NCBI RefSeq assembly: GCF_051903065.1
Contig: NZ_CP178438.1
Direction: 5' to 3' (one strand)
DNA: 64,000 nt
DNA from: Escherichia coli
GTDB lineage: Bacteria; Pseudomonadota; Gammaproteobacteria; Enterobacterales; Enterobacteriaceae
Positions 2,162-25,895 of the stretch are shown piece after piece. The notes under the pieces are model-generated. The model was not told the origin of the DNA and searched no databases. It was given only the letters and a program-made list of their open reading frames with translations. Both the position numbers and the translations under genes were made by a program. Position 1 is the first letter of the stretch; each line of letters begins with the position of its first letter.

Positions 2162-2788
2162 ATGCTTTGGTCGTTTATCGCTGTCTGTCTTTCCGCATGG
2201 CTATCTGTGGATGCATCGTATCGTGGGCCAACCTGGCAACGCTGGGTGTTTAAACCGTTAACCCTTCTTCTCCTGTTGTTACTGGCCTGGCAAGCGCCGA
2301 TGTTCGACGCCATTAGCTATCTGGTGCTGGCGGGGCTGTGCGCCTCACTGCTGGGCGATGCGCTAACCCTGTTGCCACGTCAACGTCTGATGTACGCCAT
2401 CGGCGCGTTTTTCCTCTCGCACCTGCTGTACACCATCTATTTCGCCAGTCAGATGACGCTCTCTTTCTTCTGGCCTCTGCCGTTGGTACTGCTGGTTCTG
2501 GGCGCGCTGTTACTGGCGATTATCTGGACGCGGCTGGAAGAGTATCGTTGGCCTATCTGCACGTTTATCGGCATGACGCTGGTGATGGTGTGGCTGGCAG
2601 GTGAACTGTGGTTCTTCCGTCCGACCGCTCCGGCACTCTCTGCGTTTATCGGCGCTTCGTTGCTGTTTATCAGTAACTTTGTCTGGCTGGGTAGCCACTA
2701 TCGCCGACGCTTCCGTGCGGATAACGCCATTGCCGCAGCGTGTTATTTTGCCGGTCACTTCCTCATCGTCCGCTCGCTGTATCTCTGA
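2162..2788 (+). CDS. yhhN: YhhN-family integral membrane protein
   Basis: 208-aa polytopic membrane ORF, synteny upstream of zntA. Confidence 0.85.
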
Positions 2789-2794
2789 TAAAAC

Positions 2795-2826
2795 TTGACT
2801 CTGGAGTCGACTCCAGAGTGTATCCT
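2795..2826 (+). promoter_or_regulatory. MerR-type (ZntR) promoter/operator of zntA
   Basis: -35 TTGACT (2795-2800), perfect 22-bp palindrome ACTCTGGAGTCGACTCCAGAGT (2798-2819), -10-like TATCCT (2821-2826); the 20-bp spacer is characteristic of MerR-family promoters. Confidence 0.7.
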
Positions 2827-2861
2827 TCGGTTAATGAGAAAAAACTTAACCGGAGGATGCC

Positions 2862-5060
2862 ATGTCGACTCCTGACAATCACGGCAAGAAAGCCCCTCAA
2901 TTTGCTGCGTTCAAACCGCTAACCACGGTACAGAACGCCAACGACTGTTGCTGCGACGGCGCATGCTCCAGCACGCCACCTCTTTCTGAAAACGTCTCCG
3001 GCACCCGCTATAGCTGGAAAGTCAGCGGCATGGACTGCGCCGCCTGTGCGCGCAAGGTAGAAAACGCCGTGCGCCAGCTTGCAGGCGTGAATCAGGTGCA
3101 GGTGTTGTTCGCCACCGAAAAACTGGTGGTGGATGCCGACAATGACATCCGTGCCCAGGTTGAATCTGCGGTGCAAAAAGCGGGCTATTCCCTGCGCGAT
3201 GAACAGGCCGCCGAAGAACAACAAGAATCGCGCCTGAAAGAGAATCTGCCGCTGATTACGCTAATCGTGATGATGGCAATCAGCTGGGGTCTGGAGCAGT
3301 TCAATCATCCGTTCGGGCAACTGGCGTTTATCGCGACCACGCTGGTTGGGCTGTACCCGATTGCTCGTCAGGCATTACGGCTGATCAAATCCGGCAGCTA
3401 CTTCGCCATTGAAACCTTAATGAGCGTAGCTGCTATTGGTGCGCTGTTTATTGGCGCAACGGCTGAAGCTGCGATGGTGTTGCTGCTGTTTTTGATTGGT
3501 GAACGACTGGAAGGCTGGGCCGCCAGCCGCGCGCGTCAGGGCGTTAGCGCGTTGATGGCGCTGAAACCAGAAACCGCCACGCGCCTGCGTAACGGTGAGC
3601 GGGAAGAGGTGGCGATTAACAGCCTGCGCCCTGGCGATGTGATTGAAGTTGCGGCGGGCGGGCGTTTGCCTGCCGACGGTAAACTGCTCTCGCCCTTTGC
3701 CAGTTTTGATGAAAGCGCCCTGACCGGCGAATCCATTCCGGTGGAGCGCGCAACGGGCGATAAAGTCCCTGCTGGAGCCACCAGCGTAGACCGTCTGGTA
3801 ACGCTGGAAGTGCTGTCAGAACCGGGTGCCAGCGCCATTGACCGGATTCTGAAACTGATCGAAGAAGCCGAAGAGCGTCGCGCCCCCATTGAGCGGTTTA
3901 TCGACCGTTTCAGCCGTATTTATACGCCAGCAATTATGGCCGTCGCCCTGCTGGTAACGCTGGTACCGCCGCTGCTGTTTGCCGCCAGCTGGCAAGAGTG
4001 GATTTATAAAGGGCTGACGCTGCTGCTGATTGGCTGCCCATGTGCGTTAGTTATCTCCACGCCCGCGGCGATTACCTCCGGGCTGGCAGCAGCGGCACGT
4101 CGTGGGGCGTTAATTAAAGGCGGTGCGGCGCTGGAGCAGCTAGGTCGTGTTACCCAGGTGGCGTTTGATAAAACCGGTACGCTGACCGTCGGTAAACCGC
4201 GCGTTACCGCGATTCATCCGGCAACGGGTATTAGTGAATCTGAACTGCTGACACTGGCGGCGGCGGTCGAGCAAGGCGCGACGCATCCACTGGCGCAGGC
4301 CATCGTGCGCGAAGCACAGGTTGCTGCACTCGCCATTCCCGCCGCCGAATCACAGCGGGCGCTGGTCGGGTCTGGCATTGAAGCGCAGGTTAACGGTGAG
4401 CGCGTATTGATTTGCGCTGCCGGGAAACATCCCGCTGATGCATTTGCTGGTTTAATTAACGAACTGGAAAGCGCCGGGCAAACGGTAGTGCTGGTAGTAC
4501 GTAACGATGACGTGCTTGGTGTCATTGCGTTACAGGATACCCTGCGCGCCGATGCTGCAACTGCCATCAGTGAACTGAACGCGCTGGGCGTCAAAGGGGT
4601 GATCCTCACCGGCGATAATCCACGCGCAGCGGCGGCAATTGCCGGGGAGCTGGGGCTGGAGTTTAAAGCGGGCCTGTTGCCGGAAGATAAAGTCAAAGCG
4701 GTGACCGAGCTGAATCAACATGCGCCGCTGGCGATGGTCGGTGACGGTATTAACGACGCGCCAGCGATGAAAGCTGCCGCCATCGGGATTGCAATGGGCA
4801 GCGGCACAGACGTGGCGCTGGAAACCGCCGACGCAGCATTAACCCATAACCACCTGCGCGGTCTGGTGCAAATGATTGAACTGGCACGCGCCACTCACGC
4901 CAATATCCGCCAGAACATCACTATTGCGCTGGGGCTGAAAGGGATCTTCCTCGTCACCACGCTGTTAGGAATGACCGGACTATGGCTGGCGGTGCTGGCA
5001 GATACGGGTGCGACGGTGCTGGTAACGGCGAATGCGTTAAGGTTGTTGCGCAGGAAATAA
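2862..5060 (+). CDS. zntA: Zn/Cd/Pb-exporting P1B-type ATPase ZntA
   Basis: 732 aa; N-terminal metal-binding GMDCAAC, CPC transmembrane motif (IGCPCALV), DKTGTLT phosphorylation motif, GDGINDAP. Confidence 0.95.
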   Translation: MSTPDNHGKKAPQFAAFKPLTTVQNANDCCCDGACSSTPPLSENVSGTRYSWKVSGMDCAACARKVENAVRQLAGVNQVQVLFATEKLVVDADNDIRAQVESAVQKAGYSLRDEQAAEEQQESRLKENLPLITLIVMMAISWGLEQFNHPFGQLAFIATTLVGLYPIARQALRLIKSGSYFAIETLMSVAAIGALFIGATAEAAMVLLLFLIGERLEGWAASRARQGVSALMALKPETATRLRNGEREEVAINSLRPGDVIEVAAGGRLPADGKLLSPFASFDESALTGESIPVERATGDKVPAGATSVDRLVTLEVLSEPGASAIDRILKLIEEAEERRAPIERFIDRFSRIYTPAIMAVALLVTLVPPLLFAASWQEWIYKGLTLLLIGCPCALVISTPAAITSGLAAAARRGALIKGGAALEQLGRVTQVAFDKTGTLTVGKPRVTAIHPATGISESELLTLAAAVEQGATHPLAQAIVREAQVAALAIPAAESQRALVGSGIEAQVNGERVLICAAGKHPADAFAGLINELESAGQTVVLVVRNDDVLGVIALQDTLRADAATAISELNALGVKGVILTGDNPRAAAAIAGELGLEFKAGLLPEDKVKAVTELNQHAPLAMVGDGINDAPAMKAAAIGIAMGSGTDVALETADAALTHNHLRGLVQMIELARATHANIRQNITIALGLKGIFLVTTLLGMTGLWLAVLADTGATVLVTANALRLLRRK

Positions 5061-5092: not shown

Positions 5093-5401
5093 TTAGTGCT
5101 GGGCCGGGAACGGTGGCATGGTCAGGAAAGTGTAATATAGCGCTAACATCAGAATGACGGAGATAACACAACATGTAGCAACCAGGCGGGACGTGAATGA
5201 TGGCCTTTTGAACATCAACCACAGGGCATAAGCAAGCCCGACGCCGTTAAGTAAAGGTAAAAAAATCATTAGCCAGAGCCAACCACAGGCAAGTACCCCC
5301 AGCCATCCCCCCACGGCGATTAAAACAGGCATCAGCCAATTGGGGGCGAACATCGCGAACAATCCCAGCAATCCCAGGCAAACAGGAATTAAATAATCCA
5401 T
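5093..5401 (-). CDS. Hypothetical small Trp-rich membrane protein (uncertain)
   Basis: 102-aa ORF with 3 predicted TM segments and E. coli-like codon usage in the zntA/tusA convergent spacer; weak Shine-Dalgarno; identity not recognised. Confidence 0.3.
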   Translation of the reverse strand: MDYLIPVCLGLLGLFAMFAPNWLMPVLIAVGGWLGVLACGWLWLMIFLPLLNGVGLAYALWLMFKRPSFTSRLVATCCVISVILMLALYYTFLTMPPFPAQH

Positions 5402-8659: not shown

Positions 8660-9709
8660 ATGGAAACCCCTCAACCCGATAAAACGGGCATGCACATTCT
8701 GCTCAAGCTGGCCTCGCTGGTAGTGATCCTCGCGGGCATTCACGCAGCGGCAGATATCATTGTGCAGCTGTTACTGGCGCTGTTTTTTGCCATCGTCCTC
8801 AACCCGCTCGTCACCTGGTTTATTCGTCGGGGAGTACAACGCCCCGTTGCCATTACGATTGTAGTGGTGGTGATGCTGATCGCACTAACCGCGCTGGTCG
8901 GCGTACTGGCGGCATCGTTTAACGAATTTATCTCTATGCTGCCGAAGTTTAATAAGGAGCTGACGCGCAAACTTTTTAAATTGCAGGAGATGTTGCCTTT
9001 TCTTAATTTGCATATGTCGCCGGAGCGAATGCTGCAGCGGATGGACTCGGAAAAAGTGGTTACCTTCACCACAGCGCTAATGACCGGGCTTTCCGGGGCA
9101 ATGGCGAGCGTGCTTTTGCTGGTGATGACCGTAGTTTTTATGCTGTTTGAAGTGCGCCACGTCCCTTACAAAATGCGTTTTGCATTGAATAATCCACAGA
9201 TTCATATCGCCGGACTACACCGCGCACTTAAAGGCGTTTCGCATTATCTGGCGTTAAAGACGCTACTCAGTTTATGGACAGGTGTCATCGTCTGGCTGGG
9301 GCTGGAGCTGATGGGGGTGCAGTTTGCGCTGATGTGGGCAGTACTGGCGTTTTTGCTCAACTACGTGCCCAATATCGGCGCGGTAATTTCCGCCGTACCG
9401 CCAATGATTCAGGTGCTGCTGTTTAATGGTGTTTACGAATGTATTCTGGTCGGCGCATTGTTTTTAGTGGTCCATATGGTCATCGGCAATATTTTAGAAC
9501 CACGGATGATGGGCCATCGCCTGGGGATGTCCACCATGGTGGTATTTCTTTCATTGTTAATTTGGGGATGGCTGCTCGGCCCGGTAGGGATGCTACTTTC
9601 GGTGCCATTAACCAGCGTGTGTAAAATCTGGATGGAAACGACGAAAGGCGGCAGCAAACTGGCGATTTTACTGGGGCCGGGCAGACCGAAAAGTCGGTTA
9701 CCGGGTTAA
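8660..9709 (+). CDS. yhhT: AI-2E family (PerM-like) transporter YhhT
   Basis: Start at METPQPDKTG (8660); polytopic membrane protein. Confidence 0.85.
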   Translation: METPQPDKTGMHILLKLASLVVILAGIHAAADIIVQLLLALFFAIVLNPLVTWFIRRGVQRPVAITIVVVVMLIALTALVGVLAASFNEFISMLPKFNKELTRKLFKLQEMLPFLNLHMSPERMLQRMDSEKVVTFTTALMTGLSGAMASVLLLVMTVVFMLFEVRHVPYKMRFALNNPQIHIAGLHRALKGVSHYLALKTLLSLWTGVIVWLGLELMGVQFALMWAVLAFLLNYVPNIGAVISAVPPMIQVLLFNGVYECILVGALFLVVHMVIGNILEPRMMGHRLGMSTMVVFLSLLIWGWLLGPVGMLLSVPLTSVCKIWMETTKGGSKLAILLGPGRPKSRLPG

Positions 9710-9720
9710 TAGCACCTCCT

Positions 9721-9729
9721 GAGCAGGCA
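9721..9729. repeat. Left copy of 9-bp target-site duplication (GAGCAGGCA) flanking IS1
   Basis: Identical 9-mer immediately precedes the IS1 left end and follows its right end (10498-10506). Confidence 0.85.
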
Positions 9730-9784
9730 GGTGATGCTGCCAACTTACTGATTTAGTGTATGATGGTGTTTTTGAGGTGCTCCA

Positions 9785-10060
9785 GTGGCTTCTGTTTCTA
9801 TCAGCTGTCCCTCCTGTTCAGCTACTGACGGGGTGGTGCGTAACGGCAAAAGCACCGCCGGACATCAGCGCTATCTCTGCTCTCACTGCCGTAAAACATG
9901 GCAACTGCAGTTCACTTACACCGCTTCTCAACCCGGTACGCACCAGAAAATCATTGATATGGCCATGAATGGCGTTGGATGCCGGGCAACAGCCCGCATT
10001 ATGGGCGTTGGCCTCAACACGATTTTACGTCACTTAAAAAACTCAGGCCGCAGTCGGTAA
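9785..10060 (+). CDS. insA: IS1 InsA
   Basis: 91 aa [39 protein letters not shown]... zinc-finger/HTH; GTG start. Confidence 0.9.
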
Positions 10061-10482
10061 CCTCGCGCATACAGCCGGGCAGTGACGTCATCGTCTGCGC
10101 GGAAATGGACGAACAGTGGGGCTATGTCGGGGCTAAATCGCGCCAGCGCTGGCTGTTTTACGCGTATGACAGGCTCCGGAAGACGGTTGTTGCGCACGTA
10201 TTCGGTGAACGCACTATGGCGACGCTGGGGCGTCTTATGAGCCTGCTGTCACCCTTTGACGTGGTGATATGGATGACGGATGGCTGGCCGCTGTATGAAT
10301 CCCGCCTGAAGGGAAAGCTGCACGTAATCAGCAAGCGATATACGCAGCGAATTGAGCGGCATAACCTGAATCTGAGGCAGCACCTGGCACGGCTGGGACG
10401 GAAGTCGCTGTCGTTCTCAAAATCGGTGGAGCTGCATGACAAAGTCATCGGGCATTATCTGAACATAAAACACTATCAATAA
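9979..10482 (+). CDS. insB: IS1 InsB frame (expressed as InsAB' transposase by -1 frameshift)
   Basis: 167-aa ORF overlapping insA 3' end in the -1 frame. Confidence 0.85.
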
Positions 10483-10497
10483 GTTGGAGTCATTACC

Positions 10498-10506
10498 GAG
10501 CAGGCA
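10498..10506. repeat. Right copy of 9-bp target-site duplication (GAGCAGGCA)
   Basis: Direct repeat of 9721-9729. Confidence 0.85.
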
Positions 10507-10865
10507 ATGGCCACCGTTTATCTAACAGTGGCCATTTGATTTGAGGAAATGATGAAACATTATTCAGAAAATTAATTTAAAAAAACCATTCCTTAAGTCA
10601 AATATATATAAACGCCGAATAGCGATTAAATCCTTCTCAAAGAATGCACTGATAACATTGTGTTATTTTTATTGCCTCATTTTTCTCACTCACTTATAGT
10701 TGGTCCCTGCTGGCAGTAATTTAGTCATTTCAGAGATTTTTACTCTGATGTGCACTTACTGACTTATCTCACAAGTAATTTTTTCTCTAAATAAAGAATA
10801 GTGATGCCAGCAATTACAGTTAAAACTTGCTTTACTCGTAAAAACAATACTTTAATGGGGTTCTA

Positions 10866-11255
10866 ATGAGACATTACATGAAATGGTTTGCGGCTATTGC
10901 TGTTGTGGGTGCTTTAGCGGGTTGCGCGCGTACTGCGCCAATTGATCAGGTTCACTCAACCGTCAGCGCTGGTCATACCCAGGAACAAGTGAAAAAAGCG
11001 ATTCTGAAAGCTGGCGTTGAACGCAAATGGATTATGTCCGAAGCCGGACAAGGCATAATTAAAGCACGTCAACAGTCACGCGATCATTCAGCGGAAATAC
11101 GCATTAACTACACGGCATCCAGCTACGATATCAATTATGAAAATAGCCAGAACCTTCAAGCGTCAGGCGGACAAATTCATAAAAACTACAATCGCTGGGT
11201 CCGCAATCTCGACAAAGATATTCAACTGAATTTGTCAGCGGGCGCAGATTTATAA
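10866..11255 (+). CDS. Putative lipoprotein, first gene of the biosynthetic island
   Basis: 129 aa with signal peptide and lipobox (VGALAGC); preceded by a 360-bp AT-rich leader. Confidence 0.6.
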   Translation: MRHYMKWFAAIAVVGALAGCARTAPIDQVHSTVSAGHTQEQVKKAILKAGVERKWIMSEAGQGIIKARQQSRDHSAEIRINYTASSYDINYENSQNLQASGGQIHKNYNRWVRNLDKDIQLNLSAGADL

Positions 11256-11314
11256 TTCCTCCTAAAGTCGGGCCGTTGCGGTCCGATAATAATTTAATTC
11301 CCTCTTAACAGGTT

Positions 11315-12382
11315 GTGCCCAACATGTACGAACAGGATTCTCTTAGCGCACTGGATGCGATTACCGAAGCTCAACGCATTGCCTTTGCCCCTATGCTTTT
11401 TCAAACAGCACTCTGCCTACGTAATGCGGGTGTACTTTCATATCTGGATCGGCAAGGCAAACATGGCGCAACGCTGGCTGATATCACCGAACATAGCCAT
11501 ATCAACGAATATGCTGCCAGCGTTCTGTTAGATATGGGCTTAAGCGGGCGAATTATTACCTGTAAAGAGGGAATTTATTACCTGGCGAAAATCGGTCATT
11601 ACCTCCTGCATGACACTATGACTCGCGTGAATATGGATTTCACCCAGGATGTCTGTTACCAGGGGCTCTTCTTCCTCGCCGATTCACTCAATGAAGGAAA
11701 ACCTTCCGGGTTAAAAGTATTTGGCGACTGGTCGACGATATATCCGGCACTTTCGCAATTACCAGACGCCGCTCGTGAAAGCTGGTTTGCGTTTGATCAT
11801 TACTATTCAGATGGCGCATTTAACGCCGCACTGCCTTATGTATTCGCCAACAACCCCACAACATTGTACGATGTAGGCGGCAATACGGGTAAGTGGGCTT
11901 TGCGTTGCTGCAAATACAATGAAAACATCGCCGTGACGTTATTAGATCTGCCACAACAAATCGTACTAGCGAAAGAAAATATCGCGAATGCAGGTTTTTC
12001 TGATCGCATAGATTTCCATGCGGTGGATATGCTAAGCGATGCCCCATTACCGGGCGAGGCTGATATCTGGTGGATGAGCCAATTTTTAGACTGTTTTTCA
12101 CCCGAACAAATAATTAGCATACTCAGCAAAATTGCCAGCGTAATGAAGCCTGGCGCAAAAGTTTGCATCATGGAGTTGTTCTGGGATGCGCAGCGGTTTG
12201 AAGCAGCATCGTTTAGCCTGAACGCGTCCTCACTTTATTTTACCTGCATGGCAAACGGTAACAGCCGTTTCTATAGTGCAGAGAAATTTTACGACTATCT
12301 GAATAAAGCAGGATTCCAGGTAGCAGAGCGCCACGATAATTTAGGCGTTGGGCATACACTTTTGATATGCCAAAAGAAATAA
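11315..12382 (+). CDS. Class I SAM-dependent methyltransferase (ApeB-like)
   Basis: 355 aa with glycine-rich SAM motif LYDVGGNTGKWAL; alternative ATG start at 11324. Confidence 0.8.
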   Translation: MPNMYEQDSLSALDAITEAQRIAFAPMLFQTALCLRNAGVLSYLDRQGKHGATLADITEHSHINEYAASVLLDMGLSGRIITCKEGIYYLAKIGHYLLHDTMTRVNMDFTQDVCYQGLFFLADSLNEGKPSGLKVFGDWSTIYPALSQLPDAARESWFAFDHYYSDGAFNAALPYVFANNPTTLYDVGGNTGKWALRCCKYNENIAVTLLDLPQQIVLAKENIANAGFSDRIDFHAVDMLSDAPLPGEADIWWMSQFLDCFSPEQIISILSKIASVMKPGAKVCIMELFWDAQRFEAASFSLNASSLYFTCMANGNSRFYSAEKFYDYLNKAGFQVAERHDNLGVGHTLLICQKK

Positions 12383-12422
12383 TCGTCACTTAATAATTTT
12401 GGTTTACCGCGGGCGCGCGTTG

Positions 12423-13145
12423 ATGAAATTTACATTAAATATTACCGACTGGCAGGCACTGGCGCCTGGACTTAGCGAAGCGCAGCAATGGCAAGCATGG
12501 TCGCGCCAGCCGTGGGCGATTGACCCTGCCGCGCCGTTGGCAAAATTAAGTGAACTGCCAATGATGACCGCCCGCCGCCTCAGTTCAGGCAGCAAACTGG
12601 CTGTTGAATGCGGTCTGGCAATGCTACGCCGCCATCAGCCAGACGCCGTTTTGTATACCAGTCGTCATGGCGAACTGGAGCGCAATTACCGCATTGTTCA
12701 TGCACTGGCAACCGAACAGGCGCTTTCTCCGACCGACTTCGCGCTCTCCGTACACAACTCTTCCGTGGGTAACCTGACCATTGCGGCCAAACAGCCGATC
12801 GTTTCGTCATCGCTTTCGGCTGGTCGCGACACTTTCCAGCAAGGTTTGTGTGAAGTGCTTAGCCTGTTACAAGCGGGATACCAGCGCGTGCTGATGGTCG
12901 ATTTTGACGGTTTCCTGCCCGAGTTTTATCACCCACAACTGCCATCAGAAATGCCGACCTGGCCGTACGCCGTCGCGCTGGTGATTGAAGCTGGCGATGA
13001 GTGGCAATGTGAAACGCAGTCAGCCATTGCGGGCAATGAAACAACACTGCCGCAAAGCATGTTGTTTTTACAGCACTATTTACAAAATGTAGACACATTT
13101 TCACTGCCTGGCGAGCGCGTGCAATGGCGCTGGAGCCACAGATGA
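12423..13145 (+). CDS. Ketosynthase N-terminal-domain-like protein, possible chain-length-factor partner (ApeC-like)
   Basis: About 240 aa, thiolase-like N-terminal half only; lacks the HGTAT and GHTLGA catalytic His motifs present in the two full ketosynthases of the island; start taken at ATG 12423. Confidence 0.6.
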   Translation: MKFTLNITDWQALAPGLSEAQQWQAWSRQPWAIDPAAPLAKLSELPMMTARRLSSGSKLAVECGLAMLRRHQPDAVLYTSRHGELERNYRIVHALATEQALSPTDFALSVHNSSVGNLTIAAKQPIVSSSLSAGRDTFQQGLCEVLSLLQAGYQRVLMVDFDGFLPEFYHPQLPSEMPTWPYAVALVIEAGDEWQCETQSAIAGNETTLPQSMLFLQHYLQNVDTFSLPGERVQWRWSHR

Positions 13146-13963
13146 GTAAGCTGATGTCACGTCTGGAGTGGACCTGGCGACTGGTCATGACCGGGTTATG
13201 TTTTGCCCTGTTTGGTCTCGGCGGCCTGCTGCTTTCTGTCGTGTGGTTTAACATATTGTTAGTTTTGGTGTGGGATACTTCCCGCCGCCGTCGTTTGGCG
13301 CGTCGCAGCATTGCCGCCAGTTTTCGCCTGTTTTTAACTGTCGCGAAAGGGCTTGGCGTGCTGGATTATCGTATTGATGGCGCTGAAATTTTACGTCAGG
13401 AACGCGGTTGCCTCGTCGTAGCCAATCATCCCACGCTGATCGATTACGTGCTGCTGGCGTCAGTCATGCCAGAAACTGACTGCCTGGTGAAAAGCGCACT
13501 GTTAAAAAATCCTTTTCTTGGCGGCGTCGTGCGGGCGGCAGATTATTTAATCAACAGCGAAGCTGAAACCCTGTTACCCCGCTGCCAACAGCGACTGGCA
13601 CAGGGTGACACTATCCTGATTTTCCCCGAAGGCACACGAACGAAGCCCGGTGAAAAAATGACGCTGCAGCGCGGGGCGGCGAATATTGCCGTGCGCTGCG
13701 CCAGCGATTTACGCATCGTGACAATCGGCTGTAGCGAGCATCTGCTGGATAAACAAAGTAAATGGTATGACGTTCCACCTGACCGGCCGTTTTTTACGGT
13801 TGCAGTCCATGGTCGGGTTGAAATCAATAAATTTTACGATGCAACTTCACAAGAACCGGCGCTGGCAGCAAGGCAGTTAAACCGGCATCTTTTGCTTCAA
13901 TTACAACAAGGTTGTTTACCTCTCTCAGGAATAAATAATGCAAGCGCTTTATCTGGAAATTAA
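13142..13963 (+). CDS. Lysophospholipid (PlsC-type) acyltransferase (ApeD-like)
   Basis: HX4D motif (NHPTLID) and FPEGTRT motif; N-terminal TM helix; ATG overlaps upstream stop (ATGA). Confidence 0.8.
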   Translation: MSKLMSRLEWTWRLVMTGLCFALFGLGGLLLSVVWFNILLVLVWDTSRRRRLARRSIAASFRLFLTVAKGLGVLDYRIDGAEILRQERGCLVVANHPTLIDYVLLASVMPETDCLVKSALLKNPFLGGVVRAADYLINSEAETLLPRCQQRLAQGDTILIFPEGTRTKPGEKMTLQRGAANIAVRCASDLRIVTIGCSEHLLDKQSKWYDVPPDRPFFTVAVHGRVEINKFYDATSQEPALAARQLNRHLLLQLQQGCLPLSGINNASALSGN

Positions 13964-14195
13964 AAACCTCATCATCAGCACCCTCAATCTGGACGAGTTG
14001 ACGCCTGATGATATCGATACCGACGCGCCGCTGTTTGGCGACGGTTTAGGGCTGGACTCTATCGATGCCCTGGAACTGGGACTGGCAGTAAAAAATGAGT
14101 ACGGCATCGTGCTCTCTGCGGAAAGCGAAGAGATGCGTCAGCACTTTTTCTCCGTCGCCACTCTGGCCTCTTTCATTGCTGCGCAACGTGCCTGA
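13938..14195 (+). CDS. Acyl carrier protein 1
   Basis: 85 aa with phosphopantetheine-attachment motif LGLDSIDALEL. Confidence 0.8.
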   Translation: MQALYLEIKNLIISTLNLDELTPDDIDTDAPLFGDGLGLDSIDALELGLAVKNEYGIVLSAESEEMRQHFFSVATLASFIAAQRA

Positions 14196-14206
14196 GGAAA
14201 GCCATC

Positions 14207-14458
14207 ATGACAGAACAACAAACCGTCTATCAGGAAGTCTCAGCCCTGCTGGTTAAGCTGTTTGAAATCGATCCGCAGGACATCAAACCTGAAGCGCGCC
14301 TGTACGAAGATCTGGAACTGGACAGCATCGACGCCGTTGACATGATTGTGCACCTGCAAAAGAAAACCGGTAAGAAAATCAAGCCGGAAGAGTTTAAAGC
14401 AGTGCGTACAGTCCAGGATGTCGTCGAGGCTGTAGAACGCCTGCTACAAGAAGCCTGA
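14207..14458 (+). CDS. Acyl carrier protein 2
   Basis: 83 aa with LELDSIDAVDM; GAGGAAAG Shine-Dalgarno. Confidence 0.85.
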   Translation: MTEQQTVYQEVSALLVKLFEIDPQDIKPEARLYEDLELDSIDAVDMIVHLQKKTGKKIKPEEFKAVRTVQDVVEAVERLLQEA

Positions 14459-14462
14459 TCTG

Positions 14463-15044
14463 ATGTCGGGCATTCGCTCGCTACCGATGATTAAGCTGCT
14501 GACTGGATTATTGCTGCTCGCCTGGCCGTTTGTGATTTGGTTTGGCTTAGCGCATAACGGCCTGCACTGGCTGTTACCGCTAATGGCGTTGCTGCTTTTG
14601 TTGCGTCTGCGCCAGACCCGTCGCCAGGCGGGGCCTTTACAAGCCGTCACGCAACTCGTCGCTGTCGTGGGCATCGCATTATGTGTCGCCAGCTTTATGT
14701 TGAAAACGCACCAGCTACTGCTGTTTTACCCGGTAGTGGTTAACGCGGTCATGCTGGCGGTTTTTGGCGGTTCGCTGTGGTCGGCAATGCCGATAGTTGA
14801 GCGGCTGGCGCGGTTGCAGGAGCCAGACCTCCCGGAAAAGGGCGTGCGCTATACCCGCCACGTCACGCAAATCTGGTGCGGCTTTTTCATCATTAACGGT
14901 GGAATTGCCCTCTTTACCGCGCTTTATGCCGATATGTCGTTATGGACCGCCTGGAACGGCATGATTGCTTATTTGTTGATGGGGACGTTAATGGCTGGTG
15001 AATGGCTGGTGCGCCGCCAGGTTATGAAAAGAGATCGCGCATGA
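14463..15044 (+). CDS. Integral membrane protein (ApeG-like)
   Basis: 193 aa, several predicted TM helices. Confidence 0.7.
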   Translation: MSGIRSLPMIKLLTGLLLLAWPFVIWFGLAHNGLHWLLPLMALLLLLRLRQTRRQAGPLQAVTQLVAVVGIALCVASFMLKTHQLLLFYPVVVNAVMLAVFGGSLWSAMPIVERLARLQEPDLPEKGVRYTRHVTQIWCGFFIINGGIALFTALYADMSLWTAWNGMIAYLLMGTLMAGEWLVRRQVMKRDRA

Positions 15045-16402
15045 AGCAGACCTTACCGCTTGCACGCTGGCTGACTGCGCCACGCCCTGATGACACACCC
15101 ATTGCGTGGCTGAACGAAAGTACCTGGACGCTGGGCGATTTGCGTCACGATGTCGCGCAACTTATCTGCCGCTTGCAGCAACAGCCGGGTGAACGCTGGG
15201 CGCTGTGCTTTGAGAACAGCTATCTGTTTATCGTTGCCCTGCTCGCCACGCTACACGCCGGAAAAACGCCGGTGCTTCCGGGGCATAACCGTGTTATCCA
15301 GCTTAACGAGCAACGTGAACTTTTTGATGGTGTGCTTAGCGACAGCGAACTTAACTGGCAAGGTTCATTGCTGTTGGTAGCAAGTTCCCCACAAGTCGCG
15401 ACACAATCCTTCACCTTTGCCGCTATAGCGCCAGAGGCTTATATCGAGCTGTTTACCTCCGGTTCCACGGGACAGCCGAAACGGGTGATTAAACCTGTTC
15501 ATTTGCTGGACCGTGAAGCAGAACTGCTGGCTGAACGATTAGGCGCACGTCTGGCGGATTGTCGTGTCATCGGTTCCGTATTGCCGCAGCATTTGTACGG
15601 CCTGACTTTTCGCGTTTTCCTGCCCATGGCGCTGGGATTACCCCTACATGCCGCCATGCTCTGGTATGTCGAACAGTTTGCCGCGTTGAGTCATCAGCAT
15701 CGCTATATCTTCATCAGCAGCCCGGCATTTTTGAAGCGTCTGGATACACAGCTTTCCCCACCGCCCGTTCAGGTGCTTCTCTCTGCTGGCGGTGAGCTAC
15801 CGTGGCAGGATGTACAACACACCGCGAGCTGGCTGCGCGTCTGGCCTGATGAAATCTACGGCAGCACGGAAACCGGCGTCATCGCCTGGCGCTACCGCGA
15901 ACAAGAGCAACGCCGCTGGCTACCCCTCCCAGGTATGCAGTTCCAGGCCGAAGGCGATGCCTTTCGCCTCTTTTCACCGCTGATAGCGGAAGATAACGGC
16001 CTGTTACTCGACGATATCTTACAGTTTAGCGAAGATGGTCAGTTCCATCTGATGGGGCGTCGTGGGCGCATCGTTAAGATTGAAGAAAAACGTATTTCAC
16101 TCCAGGAAGTAGAACAACGTCTACTGGCGCTGGACGGCATTCGCGAGGCGGCGGCAGTTCCCGTTACGCGCGGCGGGCGTCAGAGCATAGGCGTTTTGCT
16201 GGTGCTGGATGACGAAGCTCATCTGCAATGGCAGAACGGCGGCGGGCATAGCCAGGAAATGACCTGGCGGCGTTTACTGCGCCCGACGCTGGAGCCAGTT
16301 GCTATTCCGCGTTACTGGCGCGTTATTGATGAAATGCCAGTAAACAGTATGAACAAGCGTGTCTATGCGCAATTACAGGAGTTATTTCATGAAGCCCCAT
16401 GA
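15041..16402 (+). CDS. AMP-dependent acyl/aryl-CoA or -ACP ligase (adenylation enzyme, ApeH-like)
   Basis: AMP-binding motif FTSGSTGQPKRV; ATG overlaps upstream stop. Confidence 0.85.
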   Translation: MKQTLPLARWLTAPRPDDTPIAWLNESTWTLGDLRHDVAQLICRLQQQPGERWALCFENSYLFIVALLATLHAGKTPVLPGHNRVIQLNEQRELFDGVLSDSELNWQGSLLLVASSPQVATQSFTFAAIAPEAYIELFTSGSTGQPKRVIKPVHLLDREAELLAERLGARLADCRVIGSVLPQHLYGLTFRVFLPMALGLPLHAAMLWYVEQFAALSHQHRYIFISSPAFLKRLDTQLSPPPVQVLLSAGGELPWQDVQHTASWLRVWPDEIYGSTETGVIAWRYREQEQRRWLPLPGMQFQAEGDAFRLFSPLIAEDNGLLLDDILQFSEDGQFHLMGRRGRIVKIEEKRISLQEVEQRLLALDGIREAAAVPVTRGGRQSIGVLLVLDDEAHLQWQNGGGHSQEMTWRRLLRPTLEPVAIPRYWRVIDEMPVNSMNKRVYAQLQELFHEAP

Positions 16403-16742
16403 AATCGAGCGCCATCAGGCACAAACGAATCACCTTGAAATTGTTCTGCATCTCAGGGCGGATCTGTTCTGGTTTCGCGGTCATTTTGCCGTGCAACCAT
16501 TACTCCCAGGAGTTGCGCAAATCGATTGGGCGATGAGCTACGCGCTCAATCTGCTCGCGCCTGGCTGGCGTTTTCACTCCATTCAGAACATAAAATTCCA
16601 GTCTCCGTTGCTGCCGGAAAACCGCGTCACGCTCGCGCTTAACTGGCAGGAAGAACGCCAGATTCTGAGCTTTAGCTATCAGCGTCACGACGGTGACGCC
16701 CGCCACACCGCCAGTAGCGGGAAGATACGCCTATGTCGGTAA
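16389..16742 (+). CDS. Hotdog-fold dehydratase (FabA/FabZ-like)
   Basis: FRGHFAVQPLLPG catalytic-His motif. Confidence 0.75.
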   Translation: MKPHEIERHQAQTNHLEIVLHLRADLFWFRGHFAVQPLLPGVAQIDWAMSYALNLLAPGWRFHSIQNIKFQSPLLPENRVTLALNWQEERQILSFSYQRHDGDARHTASSGKIRLCR

Positions 16743-18409
16743 ACTTTTCTCCCTGCGTGTTGATCCCCTGCTACAACCACGGCGCGATGATGCCGGGCGT
16801 GCTGGCGCGTCTTAAGCCATTTAATCTGCCCTGTATTGTGGTGGACGACGGCAGCGATGCCGCCACGCAACAGCAACTGGACAGTCTGCTTGCCGAACAG
16901 CCTGGCGTGACCTTAATCCGCCTGGCAGAAAACGCAGGCAAAGGCGCGGCAGTGATGCGTGGCTTACAGGCAGCGGCAGACGCAGGGTTCAGCCATGCGG
17001 TGCAGGTGGATGCTGACGGTCAACATGCGATTGAAGATATCCCCAAACTGCTGGCACTCGCTGAACAACACCCTGCGGCGCTGATCTCCGGCCAGCCAAT
17101 TTACGATGACTCCATCCCCCGCTCACGGCTTTACGGGCGCTGGGTCACCCACGTCTGGGTATGGATCGAAACGCTCTCCCTGCAACTGAAAGACAGCATG
17201 TGCGGCTTTCGCGTTTATCCGGTTGCGCCAACGCTGCAACTGGCAAAACACGCCACCATCGGCAAGCGGATGGATTTCGACACTGAAGTGATGGTGCGCC
17301 TCTACTGGCAGGGAAACACCAGCTATTTCGTGCCGACCCGCGTCACCTATCCACTGGACGGGCTTTCGCATTTTGATGCCCTGAAAGATAACGTCCGCAT
17401 CTCGCTCATGCACACGCGTCTGTTTTTCGGCATGTTGCCGCGTATTCCTTCACTACTGATGCGCCGCTCTTCCAGCCACTGGGCGCGGCAGAGTGAAGTG
17501 AAAGGATTATGGGGAATGCGCCTGATGCTGCTGGTCTGGCGTCTGCTGGGAAGAACGGCGTTTAGCGCGCTGCTTTACCCGGTGGTGGGCGTCTACTGGC
17601 TCACTGCTGCTCGTGCGCGCAAAGCGTCGCAAGACTGGCTCGCCCGTGTACGACAGCATCAACCACAGGCGGCAAAACTCAACAGCTATCAGCACTTTCT
17701 ACGTTTCGGTAATGCCATGCTCGACAAAATCGCCAGCTGGCGCGGCGAGCTACAACTGGGGCACGATGTGCTGTTTGCGCCAGGCGCAGAAGCGGCGCTT
17801 GACGTCAGCGATCCGCGCGGCAAATTGCTGCTGGCCTCGCATCTTGGCGATGTGGAAGTGTGCCGGGCGCTGGCAAAAATTCAGGGCTACAAAACCATTA
17901 ACGCGCTGGTGTTTAGCGAAAACGCCCAACGCTTTAAACAGATAATGCAGGAGATGGCTCCTCAGGCAGGTATTAACCTGATGCCGGTAACAGATATCGG
18001 CCCGGAAACCGCCATCCTGCTGAAAGAGAAGCTGGATAACGGCGAATGGGTGGCGATTGTCGGTGACCGCATCGCCGTCACCCCGCAACGCGGCGGCGAC
18101 TGGCGCGTCTGCTGGAGTCCGTTTATGGGCCAGCCTGCGCCCTTCCCACAGGGGCCGTTTATTCTCGCGTCTATTTTGCGCTGCCCGGTGAATCTGATTT
18201 TCGCCCTGCGCCAGCGCGGCAAGCTGCATATTCACTGCGAAACCTTTGCCGACCCGCTGCTGTTGCCGCGTGGCGAACGCCAACAGGCGCTGCAAAACGC
18301 TATCGACCACTACGCCGCGCGTCTGGAACATTACGCGCTCCAGTCGCCCCTCGACTGGTTTAATTTTTTCGATTTCTGGCAACTGCCGGAAATTCAGGAC
18401 AAGGAGTAA
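16733..18409 (+). CDS. Two-domain glycosyltransferase family 2 / LpxL-type lipid acyltransferase fusion (ApeJ-like)
   Basis: N-terminus VVDDGSDAATQ and VDADGQH (GT2 DXD); C-terminal half resembles lauroyl/myristoyl acyltransferases. Confidence 0.8.
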   Translation: MSVNFSPCVLIPCYNHGAMMPGVLARLKPFNLPCIVVDDGSDAATQQQLDSLLAEQPGVTLIRLAENAGKGAAVMRGLQAAADAGFSHAVQVDADGQHAIEDIPKLLALAEQHPAALISGQPIYDDSIPRSRLYGRWVTHVWVWIETLSLQLKDSMCGFRVYPVAPTLQLAKHATIGKRMDFDTEVMVRLYWQGNTSYFVPTRVTYPLDGLSHFDALKDNVRISLMHTRLFFGMLPRIPSLLMRRSSSHWARQSEVKGLWGMRLMLLVWRLLGRTAFSALLYPVVGVYWLTAARARKASQDWLARVRQHQPQAAKLNSYQHFLRFGNAMLDKIASWRGELQLGHDVLFAPGAEAALDVSDPRGKLLLASHLGDVEVCRALAKIQGYKTINALVFSENAQRFKQIMQEMAPQAGINLMPVTDIGPETAILLKEKLDNGEWVAIVGDRIAVTPQRGGDWRVCWSPFMGQPAPFPQGPFILASILRCPVNLIFALRQRGKLHIHCETFADPLLLPRGERQQALQNAIDHYAARLEHYALQSPLDWFNFFDFWQLPEIQDKE

Positions 18410-18412
18410 AGG

Positions 18413-18835
18413 GTGCTTAACGATCCCCGATTTACCGCTGAAGTCGAGCTGACCATTCCCTTTCACGACGTCGATATGATGGGCGTGGCCTGGCACGGTA
18501 ACTATTTTCGCTACTTTGAAGTGGCCCGCGAGGCGCTGCTCAACCAGTTCAATTACGGCTATCGGCAGATGAAAGAGTCCGGTTATTTGTGGCCAGTGGT
18601 CGATGCGCGGGTGAAATATCGCCACGCTCTCACCTTTGAGCAACGCATCCGCGTGCGTGCGCATATCGAAGAGTTCGAAAACCGTCTGCGGATTGGCTAT
18701 CAGATTTTCGATGCCGAAACGGGCAAACGCGCCACCACCGGATACACCATTCAGGTCGCGGTCGACGAGCAAAGCCGCGAACTGTGCTTTGTCAGCCCCG
18801 ATATTCTGTTTGAACGCATGGGAGTCAAACCATGA
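18413..18835 (+). CDS. 4HBT/YbgC-type acyl thioesterase
   Basis: GTG start 7 nt after AAGGAG; HDVDMMGVAWHGNYFRYFE hotdog thioesterase signature. Confidence 0.8.
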   Translation: MLNDPRFTAEVELTIPFHDVDMMGVAWHGNYFRYFEVAREALLNQFNYGYRQMKESGYLWPVVDARVKYRHALTFEQRIRVRAHIEEFENRLRIGYQIFDAETGKRATTGYTIQVAVDEQSRELCFVSPDILFERMGVKP

Positions 18836-19437
18836 AATTTTTACCGCTGCTGGCGCTGCTGATTAGCCCGTTTGTGAGCGCCCTGACCCTGGACGATCTT
18901 CAACAACGTTTTACCGAACAGCCGGTGATCCGCGCCCATTTCGATCAAACCCGGACGATTAAAGATCTGCCGCAGCCGCTGCGATCTCAGGGCCAGATGT
19001 TGATCGCCCGCGACCAGGGGTTATTGTGGGATCAAACCTCACCGTTCCCCATGCAACTATTACTGGACGATAAACGCATGGTGCAGGTGATCAACGGTCA
19101 GCCGCCGCAAATCATCACGGCAGAAAATAACCCGCAGATGTTCCAGTTTAACCACCTGCTGCGCGCGCTGTTCCAGGCCGATCGCAAAGTGCTGGAACAA
19201 AACTTCCGCGTCGAATTTGCCGACAAAGGCGAAGGCCGCTGGACGCTGCGCCTGATGCCGACCACCACGCCACTGGATAAAATTTTCAACACCATCGATC
19301 TCGCCGGGCAAACCTATCTGGAGAGCATTCAGCTTAATGATAAACAGGGCGATCGCACCGATATTGCTCTTACCCAACATCAACTGACACCAGCGCAACT
19401 GACCGATGACGAACGCCAACGTTTTGCCGCCCAGTAA
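18832..19437 (+). CDS. LolA-like outer-membrane lipoprotein carrier protein
   Basis: 201 aa with signal peptide; size and position between thioesterase and MMPL transporter as in APE clusters. Confidence 0.7.
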   Translation: MKFLPLLALLISPFVSALTLDDLQQRFTEQPVIRAHFDQTRTIKDLPQPLRSQGQMLIARDQGLLWDQTSPFPMQLLLDDKRMVQVINGQPPQIITAENNPQMFQFNHLLRALFQADRKVLEQNFRVEFADKGEGRWTLRLMPTTTPLDKIFNTIDLAGQTYLESIQLNDKQGDRTDIALTQHQLTPAQLTDDERQRFAAQ

Positions 19438-21724
19438 ACGCCCCGCGCTGTTATGGGGGCTAGTCTGCCTGGTCATGGCGGCGGCGTTGCTGATCCTGCT
19501 GCCGCAATCACGGCTGAACAGTAGCGTGCTGGCTATGTTACCCAAACAGGCGATGGGCGATATTCCCCCAGCGCTGAATGACGGCTTTATGCAGCGTCTG
19601 GACCGCCAACTGGTGTGGCTGGTCAGCCCCGGTAAAGAGGCTAATCCCAGGGTCGCTCAGGAGTGGCTGACGCAGCTGCAAAAATCCGCTGCGCTTGGCG
19701 ACATTAAAGGGCCAATGGATGCCGCCAGCCAGCAGGCGTGGGGAGCGTTTTTCTGGCAGCACCGCAACGGCCTGATTGACCACGACACCCGCGCCCGCCT
19801 GCAAAACGGCGGCGAAGCGCAGGCGCAGTGGATCCTCTCCCAGCTTTATTCTGCATTCTCCGGGGTAAGCGGCAAGGAGCTGCAAAACGATCCGCTGATG
19901 TTAATGCGCGGCTCGCAGCTGGCGATGGCAAAAAATGGCCAGCGTTTGCGGCTGATGGACGGCTGGCTGGTGACGCAGGATCCCCAGGGCAACTACTGGT
20001 ATCTGCTGCACGGCGAACTGGCGGGATCGTCGTTTGATATGCAGCAAACCCACCAGCTCATCACGACCCTGAATACGCTGGAAAAGGATCTGAAAACGCG
20101 TTACCCACAGGCGCAGTTGCTCTCGCGCGGCACGGTATTTTACAGCGATTACGCCAGTCAACAGGCGAAGCAGGATATCTCAACCCTGGGCGTGGCAACG
20201 CTGCTGGGGGTGATATTGCTGATTGTGGCGGTGTTCCGCTCTTTGCGCCCGTTGCTGCTTTGCGTGATTTCCATCGGCATCGGCGCGCTGGCGGGAACGG
20301 TCGCCACTTTATTGATTTTCGGTGAATTACACCTGATGACGCTGGTGATGAGCATGAGCGTTATCGGCATTTCCGCTGACTACACGCTCTATTATCTCAC
20401 CGAGCGGATGGTTCACGGCAACGACGTTTCGCCGTGGCAAAGCCTGGCGAAAGTACGCAATGCCTTGCTACTGGCGCTGCTCACCACCGTGGCGGCGTAT
20501 CTGATTATGATGCTCGCCCCCTTCCCCGGCATTCGCCAGATGGCGATTTTTGCCGCCGTCGGGTTGAGCGCCTCCTGTCTGACCGTCCTGTTCTGGCATC
20601 CGTGGCTGTGCCGTGGCCTGCCGGTGCGTCCGGTTCCGGCGATGGCGCTGATGCTACGCTGGCTGGCAGCGTGGCGGCGTAATAAAAAACTGTCGCTGGG
20701 TCTGCCCGTCGCGCTGGCGCTGTTTTCGCTGGCGGGGATGTCAATGCTACGCGTCGATGACGATATCTCGCAGTTACAGGCGCTACCGCAGCATATTCTG
20801 GCGCAGGAAAAAGCCATTACCGCCCTGACCAGGCAGAGCGTCGATCAAAAATGGTTTGTGGTTTACGGCGATTCGCCACAGCAAACATTGCGGCGACTGG
20901 AGAAATATACCGCCTCACTTGAGTATGCGAAAAAAGAGGGGCTTATCAGCAACTACCGCACCATTCCGCTGAACTCCCTTGCGCGGCAGGAGGAAGATTT
21001 ACAACTGCTGAAAACGGCGGCCCCGACAGTAACAAAAGCGCTGCAAAATGCCGGGCTGACGGCAGTGAACCCGGATCTCAACGCCATGCCAGTGAACGTT
21101 GATGAATGGCTGGCAAGCCCCGCCAGTGAAGGCTGGCGTCTGCTGTGGCTGACGCTGGAAAACGGCGAAAGCGGCGTACTGGTGCCGGTTGAAGGGGTTA
21201 AAAGTAGCGCGTTGATGCAGGAAATCGCCAGCTATTACCCTTGCGGCATTGCCTGGGTTGATCGCAAAAGCACCTTTGATGAATTGTTCGCACTTTACCG
21301 TTATGTCTTAACCGGCTTGTTGCTGGTGGCGCTGGCGGTGATTGCCTGCGGCGCAGTGGCCCGTCTCGGCTGGCGCAAAGGGCTTATCAGCCTGGTGCCT
21401 TCGGTGCTTTCGCTGGGCTGCGGTCTGGCGGTGCTGGCGATGAGCGGGCAGGCGGTGAATATCTTTTCGCTTCTGGCGCTGGTGCTGGTGCTTGGCATCG
21501 GCATCAATTACACGCTGTTTTTCAGTAATCCGCGCGGCACACCGTTAACTTCGCTACTGGCGATCACACTGGCAATGCTCACCACCTTGCTGACGCTGGG
21601 AATGTTGGTATTCAGCGCCACCCAGGCCATCAGCAGTTTTGGCATTGTGCTGGTGAGCGGTATTTTCACCGCCTTCCTGCTTTCGCCGCTGGCTATGCCC
21701 GATAAAAAGAGAACAAAAAAATGA
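19406..21724 (+). CDS. MMPL/RND-superfamily exporter
   Basis: 772 aa with two clusters of TM helices separated by soluble loops. Confidence 0.8.
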   Translation: MTNANVLPPSKRPALLWGLVCLVMAAALLILLPQSRLNSSVLAMLPKQAMGDIPPALNDGFMQRLDRQLVWLVSPGKEANPRVAQEWLTQLQKSAALGDIKGPMDAASQQAWGAFFWQHRNGLIDHDTRARLQNGGEAQAQWILSQLYSAFSGVSGKELQNDPLMLMRGSQLAMAKNGQRLRLMDGWLVTQDPQGNYWYLLHGELAGSSFDMQQTHQLITTLNTLEKDLKTRYPQAQLLSRGTVFYSDYASQQAKQDISTLGVATLLGVILLIVAVFRSLRPLLLCVISIGIGALAGTVATLLIFGELHLMTLVMSMSVIGISADYTLYYLTERMVHGNDVSPWQSLAKVRNALLLALLTTVAAYLIMMLAPFPGIRQMAIFAAVGLSASCLTVLFWHPWLCRGLPVRPVPAMALMLRWLAAWRRNKKLSLGLPVALALFSLAGMSMLRVDDDISQLQALPQHILAQEKAITALTRQSVDQKWFVVYGDSPQQTLRRLEKYTASLEYAKKEGLISNYRTIPLNSLARQEEDLQLLKTAAPTVTKALQNAGLTAVNPDLNAMPVNVDEWLASPASEGWRLLWLTLENGESGVLVPVEGVKSSALMQEIASYYPCGIAWVDRKSTFDELFALYRYVLTGLLLVALAVIACGAVARLGWRKGLISLVPSVLSLGCGLAVLAMSGQAVNIFSLLALVLVLGIGINYTLFFSNPRGTPLTSLLAITLAMLTTLLTLGMLVFSATQAISSFGIVLVSGIFTAFLLSPLAMPDKKRTKK

Positions 21725-22305: not shown

Positions 22306-22306
22306 T

Positions 22307-23476: not shown

Positions 23477-23937
23477 GCCACTATTTATCCCCCGGTGCTT
23501 ATCTGCCCCACGACGCGCCCATGTTACTGCTGGAAGACGTGGTGAGCGTCAGCGATGACAGCGCGGTGTGCCGCGTGACGGTTTCGCCCAGTGGCGTACT
23601 GGCACCGTTTCTCGACCCGGACGGCAATCTCCCCGGCTGGTTTACCCTTGAACTGATGGCGCAAACCGTCGGCGTCTGGTCTGGCTGGCATCGCCACCAG
23701 CAGGGCAAAAACAGTATTGAGTTAGGGATGATACTGGGCGCGCGTGAATTGCTTTGCACCACTGGCATTCTGCCCGCAGGCCAGACGCTGACCATTACCG
23801 TCAAACTGCTGATGCAAGACGATCGCTTCGGCAGTTTTGAGTGCAGCATCAACGACGGCGAGGCAACGGGCCGCATTAACACCTTCCAGCCGACCGCGGA
23901 AGAACTTACCACCCTGTTTCAACAAGGAGCGTCCTGA
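23473..23937 (+). CDS. Hotdog-fold dehydratase (FabA-like)
   Basis: 154-aa hotdog-sized ORF; GTGA overlap with upstream ketosynthase. Confidence 0.7.
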   Translation: MSHYLSPGAYLPHDAPMLLLEDVVSVSDDSAVCRVTVSPSGVLAPFLDPDGNLPGWFTLELMAQTVGVWSGWHRHQQGKNSIELGMILGARELLCTTGILPAGQTLTITVKLLMQDDRFGSFECSINDGEATGRINTFQPTAEELTTLFQQGAS

Positions 23938-25894: not shown

Positions 25895-25895
25895 T

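Follow-up and report, generated by a model that had tools for sequence, protein, structure and literature searches.

The non-coding segment that separates yhhT from apeA, the first gene of the aryl polyene (APE) cluster, is in this Escherichia coli chromosome probably a native and conserved regulatory spacer, in which a terminator, an AT-rich tract, a sigma-70 promoter, an unstructured leader and a ribosome-binding site succeed one another. The window considered here is a stretch of 64,000 nucleotides of contig NZ_CP178438.1, and the segment occupies its positions 10507-10865. It represents the yhhT-apeA spacer of the APE cluster in the version called 'O-island 138' (OI-138) in E. coli O157:H7; the 401 bp covering the spacer are 100% identical to O157:H7 genomes, and the gene order yhhT, apeA-apeR, acpT, nikA, taken from the annotation of identical or near-identical genomes, is that of O-island 138 in strain EDL933. 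The annotation was borrowed from strain 23CRST027 (NZ_AP045789.1), whose coordinates coincide with those of the window and which shows 3 base differences over the first 50 kb of the window. In the architecture proposed, a Rho-independent terminator would end yhhT transcription and, in this strain, would also stop transcription leaving a neighboring IS1 element; nucleoid proteins may bind the tract of 75% AT that lies upstream of the promoter; the sigma-70 promoter TTGCCT-17-TATAGT (10672-10700) would start the ape transcript around position 10707; and the AU-rich leader that follows, unstructured and about 159 nt long, would lead through a conserved block and the Shine-Dalgarno sequence to the ATG at 10866. 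We regard the segment as an ordinary intergenic control region of a known gene cluster, which poses no challenge to current understanding. Its elements are the following:

10507-10544, plus strand: predicted intrinsic (Rho-independent) terminator of yhhT, from its fold, its position and hairpins found across genera
10545-10660, no strand: most AT-rich tract, upstream of the promoter, delimited by composition; candidate site for a nucleoid protein or an activator
10672-10677, plus strand: predicted -35 element TTGCCT, preceded by the conserved A/T stretch TTATTTTTA; from consensus scan, scoring and alignment
10695-10700, plus strand: predicted -10 element TATAGT, after a 17-bp spacer; from scoring and alignment, with a predicted start at about 10706-10709
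10707-10865, plus strand: predicted 5' leader, AU-rich and about 159 nt long, which lacks a conserved secondary structure
10833-10860, plus strand: conserved block ACTCGTAAAAACAATACTTTAATGGGG, ending in the Shine-Dalgarno sequence GGGG (10857-10860) and aligned with ACACGTATAAACAGTACTTTGAKAGGGAG in Citrobacter and Klebsiella
10866-11255, plus strand: apeA, lipoprotein gene and first gene of the APE cluster, 129 amino acids from ATG 10866

The evidence for the promoter comes from scoring and from comparison between genomes. TTGCCT-17-TATAGT matches the sigma-70 consensus at 9 of 12 positions and was also picked up by the consensus scan. With 11.8 bits it has the best score of the plus strand, where it is the sole site exceeding the 95th percentile of shuffle maxima (11.4 bits). 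The promoter falls in the 70-bp block where the spacer is best conserved: between O157 and Escherichia sp. E1V33 the block 10647-10716 is 97-100% identical, compared with 77-83% for the neighboring 30-mers, 90% for the whole spacer and 80-88% for third codon positions in yhhT, apeA and apeB. Aligned counterparts of the form TTGATA/TTGATG-17-TATACT are found in Citrobacter, Klebsiella indica and K. michiganensis. When orthologous spacers were each scanned independently, the aligned site was the top promoter in 10 of them (E. coli 042, Escherichia sp. E1V33, five Citrobacter species or strains, K. indica, K. michiganensis and Superficieibacter), at a distance of 165-210 nt from the ATG, or of 300 nt in the presence of an insertion. 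An earlier note on this DNA, made without database searches, had placed the promoter of the cluster in the segment and named promoter prediction as a check; the prediction has now been run, and with its top site also the best one in orthologous spacers the claim is very probably right.

Expression data on O-island 138, to which locus tags Z4850-Z4861 of EDL933 were assigned (PMC2907692), are consistent with such a promoter. Microarray signals of these genes in EDL933 grown in lysogeny broth (LB) range over log2 values of 3-10, mostly near 7-10 (PMC2907692), which indicates that the locus is not silent. The same genes are 2-6 fold up in an rpoS mutant of EDL933 (PMC2907692), a rise that fits sigma-70-dependent genes under sigma competition. 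Z4853 and Z4854 also show an approximately 2-fold increase upon epithelial cell contact.

Two other promoter-like features were encountered in the spacer. A minus-strand site at 10601-10574 (TTGACT-16-TAAATT, 9.9 bits) faces no gene that it could serve and is typical of the spurious promoters of AT-rich DNA. A sigma-54 reading of CTGGCAG-N-TTAGT at 10710 was rejected, as the GC of the -12 element is missing and the motif is not conserved in Citrobacter.

Several points weigh against the proposed architecture. The score of the promoter is by itself marginally above chance (11.8 versus 11.4 bits). Lelliottia, Enterobacter, Kosakonia and the APE cluster of the type found in uropathogenic E. coli (UPEC) CFT073 have their best promoter elsewhere, 88-121 nt before the ATG, and the architecture is therefore not universal. 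There may be a second promoter nearer apeA, or internal promoters; the authors working on the CFT073 cluster speak of its 'native promoter(s)', and the literature yielded no mapped start site or promoter fusion for OI-138. In an alternative reading, the functional promoter is close to apeA, inside the conserved block at 10790-10850 or immediately upstream of it, and drives a transcript with a short leader, TTGCCT-17-TATAGT being then a secondary, fortuitous or upstream regulatory element. No other element of the spacer is as widely conserved as the block adjacent to the Shine-Dalgarno sequence, and the best promoters of the CFT073-type, Lelliottia and Huaxiibacter sequences fall 88-121 nt before the ATG. 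However, sigma-70 scoring within 10790-10850 gives weak values of 4.4 and 4.0 bits, far under the shuffle maxima, this stretch shows no conserved -35/-10 pair, and the TTGATA of the block, at 12-17 nt from the ATG, lies too near it to act as a -35 element. We consider this alternative unlikely and retain the distal promoter at 10672-10700.

The leader that this distal promoter would generate ends in a conserved translation start. The TTGATA-GGAG portion of the conserved block is retained in Lelliottia, Enterobacter, Kosakonia and Leclercia. The conserved start of apeA is ATG 10866, common to the CFT073-type and Citrobacter genes and preceded by a conserved Shine-Dalgarno spacing; the annotation pipeline PGAP calls position 10878 (125 amino acids) in O157-type genomes, and Citrobacter has ATT in place of this second E. 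coli ATG. The sequence ATGAAACATTA at 10552 looks like a second copy of the apeA start (ATGAGACATTA at 10866), but the resemblance was discarded as not significant, 43 of 500 shuffles reaching as high a score.

The length of the leader raises the question of control after initiation, and it could be imagined as a cis-regulatory RNA, whether riboswitch, attenuator or target of a small RNA (sRNA) or of CsrA, that gates ape expression. In favor of such an RNA, about 160-210 nt is an unusual length for a leader, Escherichia, Citrobacter and Klebsiella all keep to this length class, and the conserved 25-nt block abuts the Shine-Dalgarno sequence. The structural evidence points the other way. A scan of positions 9600-11400 against Rfam returned no match at E<=1, the single-sequence fold of the leader (z -0.29) is not better than that of shuffles, and the consensus structure amounts to -1.8 kcal/mol in Alifold with almost no covariation. 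A long-range pairing specific to E. coli, GCTGGCA/TGCCAGC, was also rejected, being uncompensated in E1V33. Neither is there a conserved leader peptide: a mini-ORF (open reading frame) of 7-8 codons (ATGATGAAACATTATTCAGAAAATTAA) at 10549-10575, with GAGG upstream, lies just past the yhhT terminator and ahead of the promoter, and has no conserved counterpart beyond E. coli. The likeness of its start to that of apeA does not exceed chance. A regulatory RNA in this position is improbable. At a speculative level to which we give little credence, the retained length of the leader and the 25-nt block by the ribosome-binding site (10833-10860) would together mark an undescribed control point of aryl polyene synthesis, of post-transcriptional or operator type. 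Its candidates would be a site for an sRNA, for CsrA or for another RNA-binding protein, or a repressor operator overlapping translation initiation. Such an element would be common to Escherichia, Citrobacter and Klebsiella, and nucleoid proteins acting on the AT tract could add to its control.

At its other end, the spacer begins with a hairpin, and on sequence grounds its first 38 bp functionally belong to yhhT, as its terminator. The stem ATGGCCAC-C-GTT / AAC-A-GTGGCCAT (8+3 bp, GC-containing) carries the loop TATCT and is followed by the tail TTGATTTG. The 29-nt hairpin alone folds with -14.8 kcal/mol, and the 51-nt segment 10500-10550 with -17.7 kcal/mol (z -3.2), a stability that none of 200 shuffles equaled. 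In Escherichia sp. E1V33 an A-to-G change closes the internal mismatch of the hairpin and brings it to -18.3 kcal/mol. Among the intact syntenic loci described below, most other genera possess a hairpin of unrelated sequence followed by a T tract after yhhT. The E. coli structure resembles other enterobacterial intrinsic terminators in its GC-containing 8+3-bp stem, its 5-nt loop, its T-rich tail and its conserved position; it differs from them by an interrupted T tract (TTGATTTG) and, in this strain, by the 768-bp IS1 that parts it from its gene. In genomes free of IS1 the hairpin begins 20 nt past the yhhT stop codon. The features on this side are:

8660-9709, plus strand: yhhT, encoding an AI-2E family transporter, from the annotation of a near-identical genome and the ORF list; stop codon at 9707-9709
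9721-9729, no strand: left 9-bp target-site duplication GAGCAGGCA of IS1, read from the sequence; O157 has a single copy
9730-10497, plus strand: IS1, 768 bp, insA/insB' with programmed frameshift, from the sequence, the ORF list and the annotation of a near-identical genome
10498-10506, no strand: right 9-bp target-site duplication GAGCAGGCA of IS1, read from the sequence

The IS1 element has all its usual features, namely a length of 768 bp, terminal inverted repeats, the insA/insB' frameshift and a 9-bp target duplication. It is inserted 12-20 bp past the yhhT stop, upstream of the yhhT terminator and in the same orientation as yhhT, and together with its duplication constitutes the difference from O-island 138 of O157:H7, which lacks both. 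While it shares length, 9-bp target duplication and the insA plus insB' frameshift with IS1 insertions in AT-rich intergenic DNA, it lies just outside the AT tract, in the GC-richer 25 bp between stop codon and terminator. The same junction was found in 2 of 5,426 complete E. coli genomes, both of them 23CRST strains from Ecuador. The spacer itself is single-copy per genome and present with 95-100% identity in 569 of the 5,426, a reason for rejecting its reading as a repeat or a mobile element; 567 of these 569 carriers are without this IS1, their spacer being unchanged. The distribution suggests that the insertion is rare, recent and strain-specific, and that IS1 is a bystander. Because it sits between the yhhT stop and the terminator, yhhT transcripts must now enter IS1; the element parts yhhT from its terminator and leaves the ape control region intact.

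This configuration bears on the possibility that the spacer holds no promoter and that, in this strain, RNA polymerase reaches the ape genes by reading through from yhhT or IS1 (insAB or an outward hybrid promoter); read-through from IS1 was the example which the earlier note had named as contradicting its own view. Both IS1 and yhhT point towards apeA, and IS1 ends are known to form hybrid promoters at some loci. Transcription arriving from IS1 or yhhT would nevertheless meet the yhhT terminator hairpin (10507-10544) and its T tract before apeA, and read-through from IS1 is unlikely because this hairpin lies between IS1 and the promoter. The right IS1 junction offers only TTGGAG-17-ATGGCC, with no -10 element at the correct spacing, so that a hybrid outward promoter was rejected. 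The 567 carriers without this IS1 and the conserved promoter speak for autonomous transcription. Read-through as the source of ape transcripts is, on the whole, very improbable.

Strain 7CC contains an independent IS1 insertion (locus sequence L006, 1866-2633) with the duplication TAATGAGAC, situated between the whole leader and the apeA ATG and corresponding to about 10863-10871 of the window. This insertion should uncouple apeA from its native promoter. Two separate IS1 insertions have thus been observed in one spacer of about 390 bp among 569 carriers.

The genes that the spacer serves form a known set:

10866-26483, plus strand: APE cluster apeA-apeR followed by acpT (O-island 138 plus acpT), the operon served by the spacer

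According to the annotation, apeA-apeR encode a lipoprotein, a methyltransferase, a ketosynthase and chain length factor pair (KS/CLF), two acyl carrier proteins (ACPs), an adenylating enzyme, dehydratases (DH), a ketoreductase (KR), a glycosyltransferase (GT), a thioesterase (TE) and LolA-like, MMPL and DUF3261 proteins, with acpT and nikA next. In the account that PMC8253772 gives of De Lay and Cronan 2006, the products of O-island 138 (Z4849-Z4866 region) are substrates of AcpT. The characterized relative is the APE cluster of UPEC CFT073 (c1186-c1204; Cimermancic 2014, Johnston 2021), which has the same 18 genes with about 85% identity of the coding DNA, an apeA starting with the same M-K/R-x-Y-x-K-W motif, and an AT-rich spacer of about 500 bp (37% GC) in front. 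It differs in occupying another chromosomal site, adjoining cdiBA, and in its control region. The upstream DNA and the first 55-90 nt or so of apeA cannot be aligned with the version in the window, and the best predicted promoter there is TTGACA-18-TATATT, 88 nt before the ATG. This cluster type was found at its separate site in about 255 further E. coli genomes, where the alignment likewise starts 55-90 nt inside apeA, with unrelated sequence upstream. The published regulation data, namely higher expression at 37 C than at 23 C and induction by TosR and by chronic oxidative stress, belong to the CFT073 version and not to that of O-island 138.

In K-12 the whole spacer is absent: homology to the window breaks off within the final yhhT codon and returns about 20 nt ahead of acpT, in a clean deletion-type junction. 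A 37-bp filler ATGAGGCGACAAGTGATACGATACGCACTTTCATTTTC (locus sequence L003, 5916-5952) replaces there the cluster of about 16 kb, and the window contains nothing that matches this filler significantly. A synteny scan based on one genome per species returned 80 loci in Enterobacterales. Leaving out the IS1-interrupted strain 7CC, yhhT stands directly upstream of apeA in 27 intact loci, including those of E. coli O157 and 042, distributed over Escherichia, Citrobacter, Klebsiella, Lelliottia, Enterobacter, Kosakonia, Atlantibacter, Leclercia, Huaxiibacter, Superficieibacter and an unclassified metagenome-assembled genome. In all of these but Citrobacter amalonaticus S646, the spacer measures 265-511 bp with 31-38% GC and precedes a cluster of 50-60% GC. 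The S646 spacer reaches 696 bp and 41% GC owing to an insertion of about 330 bp (locus sequence L017, about 2730-3420), an internally duplicated GC-rich element (…GAGTTGCGGGACAAAACGCGTCGTCGTTTTG…GGCCCCGAAGGGGCGAGGC…) which looks like a small repeat or mobile element. Because a long AT-rich yhhT-apeA spacer is syntenic across Enterobacteriaceae, the locus looks ancestral and repeatedly lost rather than a recent foreign import. The 'orphaned AcpT' view of De Lay and Cronan 2006, as relayed in PMC8253772, agrees with an ancestral locus followed by loss.

The earlier note had described the segment as a strongly AT-rich leader lacking any ORF of significant length, between IS1 and a horizontally acquired operon. 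The description of its composition is borne out, since GC content is 31.8% over the 359 bp of 10507-10865 (30.3% over 10546-10865), as against 51.6% for the window, 50.7% for yhhT, 53.3% for IS1 and 55.5% for the APE cluster, and since the longest ORF within the spacer has 27 amino acids. Homopolymers of A or T are present as stated (A7 at 10579, T6 at 10779, T5 at 10666, 10680 and 10737, A5 at 10840), and a pure A/T run of 18 nt extends over 10568-10585. The limits of the segment are also exact, 10507 being the first base past the right IS1 duplication and 10865 the base before the apeA ATG. Its framing as a gap between IS1 and the island is not tenable: because K-12 homology ends within the last codon of yhhT, the spacer is itself island-specific DNA. 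The premise of horizontal acquisition is weak as well, with a cluster of 55% GC and yhhT-apeA synteny across many genera of Enterobacteriaceae.

In EDL933 the spacer (391 bp) has a GC fraction of 0.33 and ranks among the lowest four when set beside 22 neighboring intergenic spacers (0.28-0.63, typically about 0.43). It is AT-rich even by intergenic standards, yet not unique. Within the 64 kb, 1.3% of all 359-bp windows are equally AT-rich, and the others are confined to two multi-kb AT-rich blocks of 31-40% GC at 38000-42000 and 57600-60400 (the equally AT-rich windows proper lying at 39-42 kb and 57.5-59.5 kb). The first block spans yhiJ, a second DUF4049 paralogue and the region upstream of yhiM; the second comprises a frameshifted hypothetical gene, slp and dctR, after which come chuS and chuA. 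Judged by composition, both blocks are better H-NS candidates than the spacer.

The earlier note had proposed that H-NS-type silencing or regulation by other nucleoid proteins might act on the island from this segment. In its explicit form, this proposal makes the AT-rich spacer a nucleation site for H-NS (or StpA/Hha), from which a repressive filament over the promoter would silence the cluster until counter-silencers or temperature relieve it. It is compatible with the regulatory spacer described above, to which it would add a layer. AT content speaks in its favor: the 359 bp contain 68% AT and positions 10547-10646 contain 75%, including AAATATATATAAA at 10600-10612, as against 48% for the window, and this holds for the spacer only. 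About 320 bp are thus at 68-75% AT, with long pure A/T runs directly upstream of the promoter. The AT-richness of the spacer is kept across genera and its sequence is not, the AT tract being poorly conserved between genera, with 77-87% identity to E1V33 over 10607-10656. The paralogous CFT073-type cluster, with its upstream DNA of 37% GC, shows higher expression at 37 C than at 23 C (PMC12890032), and it is induced by overproduction of TosR (PMC8253772), a PapB-family protein which binds AT-rich DNA and is thought to antagonize H-NS and Lrp (PMC5956150), as well as by chronic oxidative stress. In Frischella, APE production requires IHF (PMC10104596).

Other observations fit silencing less well. 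The high-affinity H-NS motif TCGATAAATT reported in Lang 2007 had no match in the spacer with up to 2 mismatches where 1.1 were expected, and TpA steps, at 31 observed versus 38.6 expected, are not enriched. Scans for the consensus sequences of IHF, H-NS, CRP, FNR, Fur, Lrp and OxyR, and for those of marbox, CpxR, PhoP, ArcA and RcsAB, gave no more than the shuffle expectation. The AT-rich tract is short and flanked by DNA of 51-55% GC, the cluster is neither AT-rich nor evidently foreign, and EDL933 in LB gives readily detectable signals for the OI-138 genes. The data on thermoregulation and on TosR stem from a cluster whose upstream DNA cannot be aligned with the spacer. Literature searches found no paper that directly connects H-NS to APE clusters, no O157 chromatin immunoprecipitation (ChIP) resource and no H-NS occupancy or hns-mutant data for the locus; the study gkaa709 (NAR 2020) deals with Salmonella, and the strains covered by published ChAP-seq are K-12, SE11 and SE15.

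The promoter regions of xenogeneic islands such as bgl, proU and the locus of enterocyte effacement (LEE) are reportedly AT-rich and silenced by H-NS (Navarre 2006, Lucchini 2006). The spacer resembles these in being short, far more AT-rich than the genome, placed upstream of an accessory operon and furnished with long A/T runs; it differs from them by an operon body of 55% GC, by synteny across genera, by the lack of a detected high-affinity motif and by genes detectably expressed in LB. On balance, H-NS silencing is a tentative possibility that stays well short of being the expected outcome.

Two features outside the APE locus may be mentioned. A hypothetical gene of 102 amino acids (5093-5401, minus strand) lies between zntA and tusA in a spacer of 485 bp, which in O157 and K-12 measures only about 100 bp, and the insert looks like a small strain-variable insertion. 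A hicA/hicB toxin-antitoxin pair (32037-32668, minus strand) is located between nikR and yhhJ.

APE clusters belong to the most widespread biosynthetic gene clusters of bacteria and influence oxidative-stress tolerance and biofilm formation, and hardly any of their native regulation in E. coli has been mapped. The O-island-138 version now has a concrete candidate promoter (10672-10700), together with a predicted start and leader. The AT-rich spacer would be a conserved feature of an ancestral locus and not the signature of a recent import, and the IS1 element carried by this strain should neither drive nor disrupt the operon.

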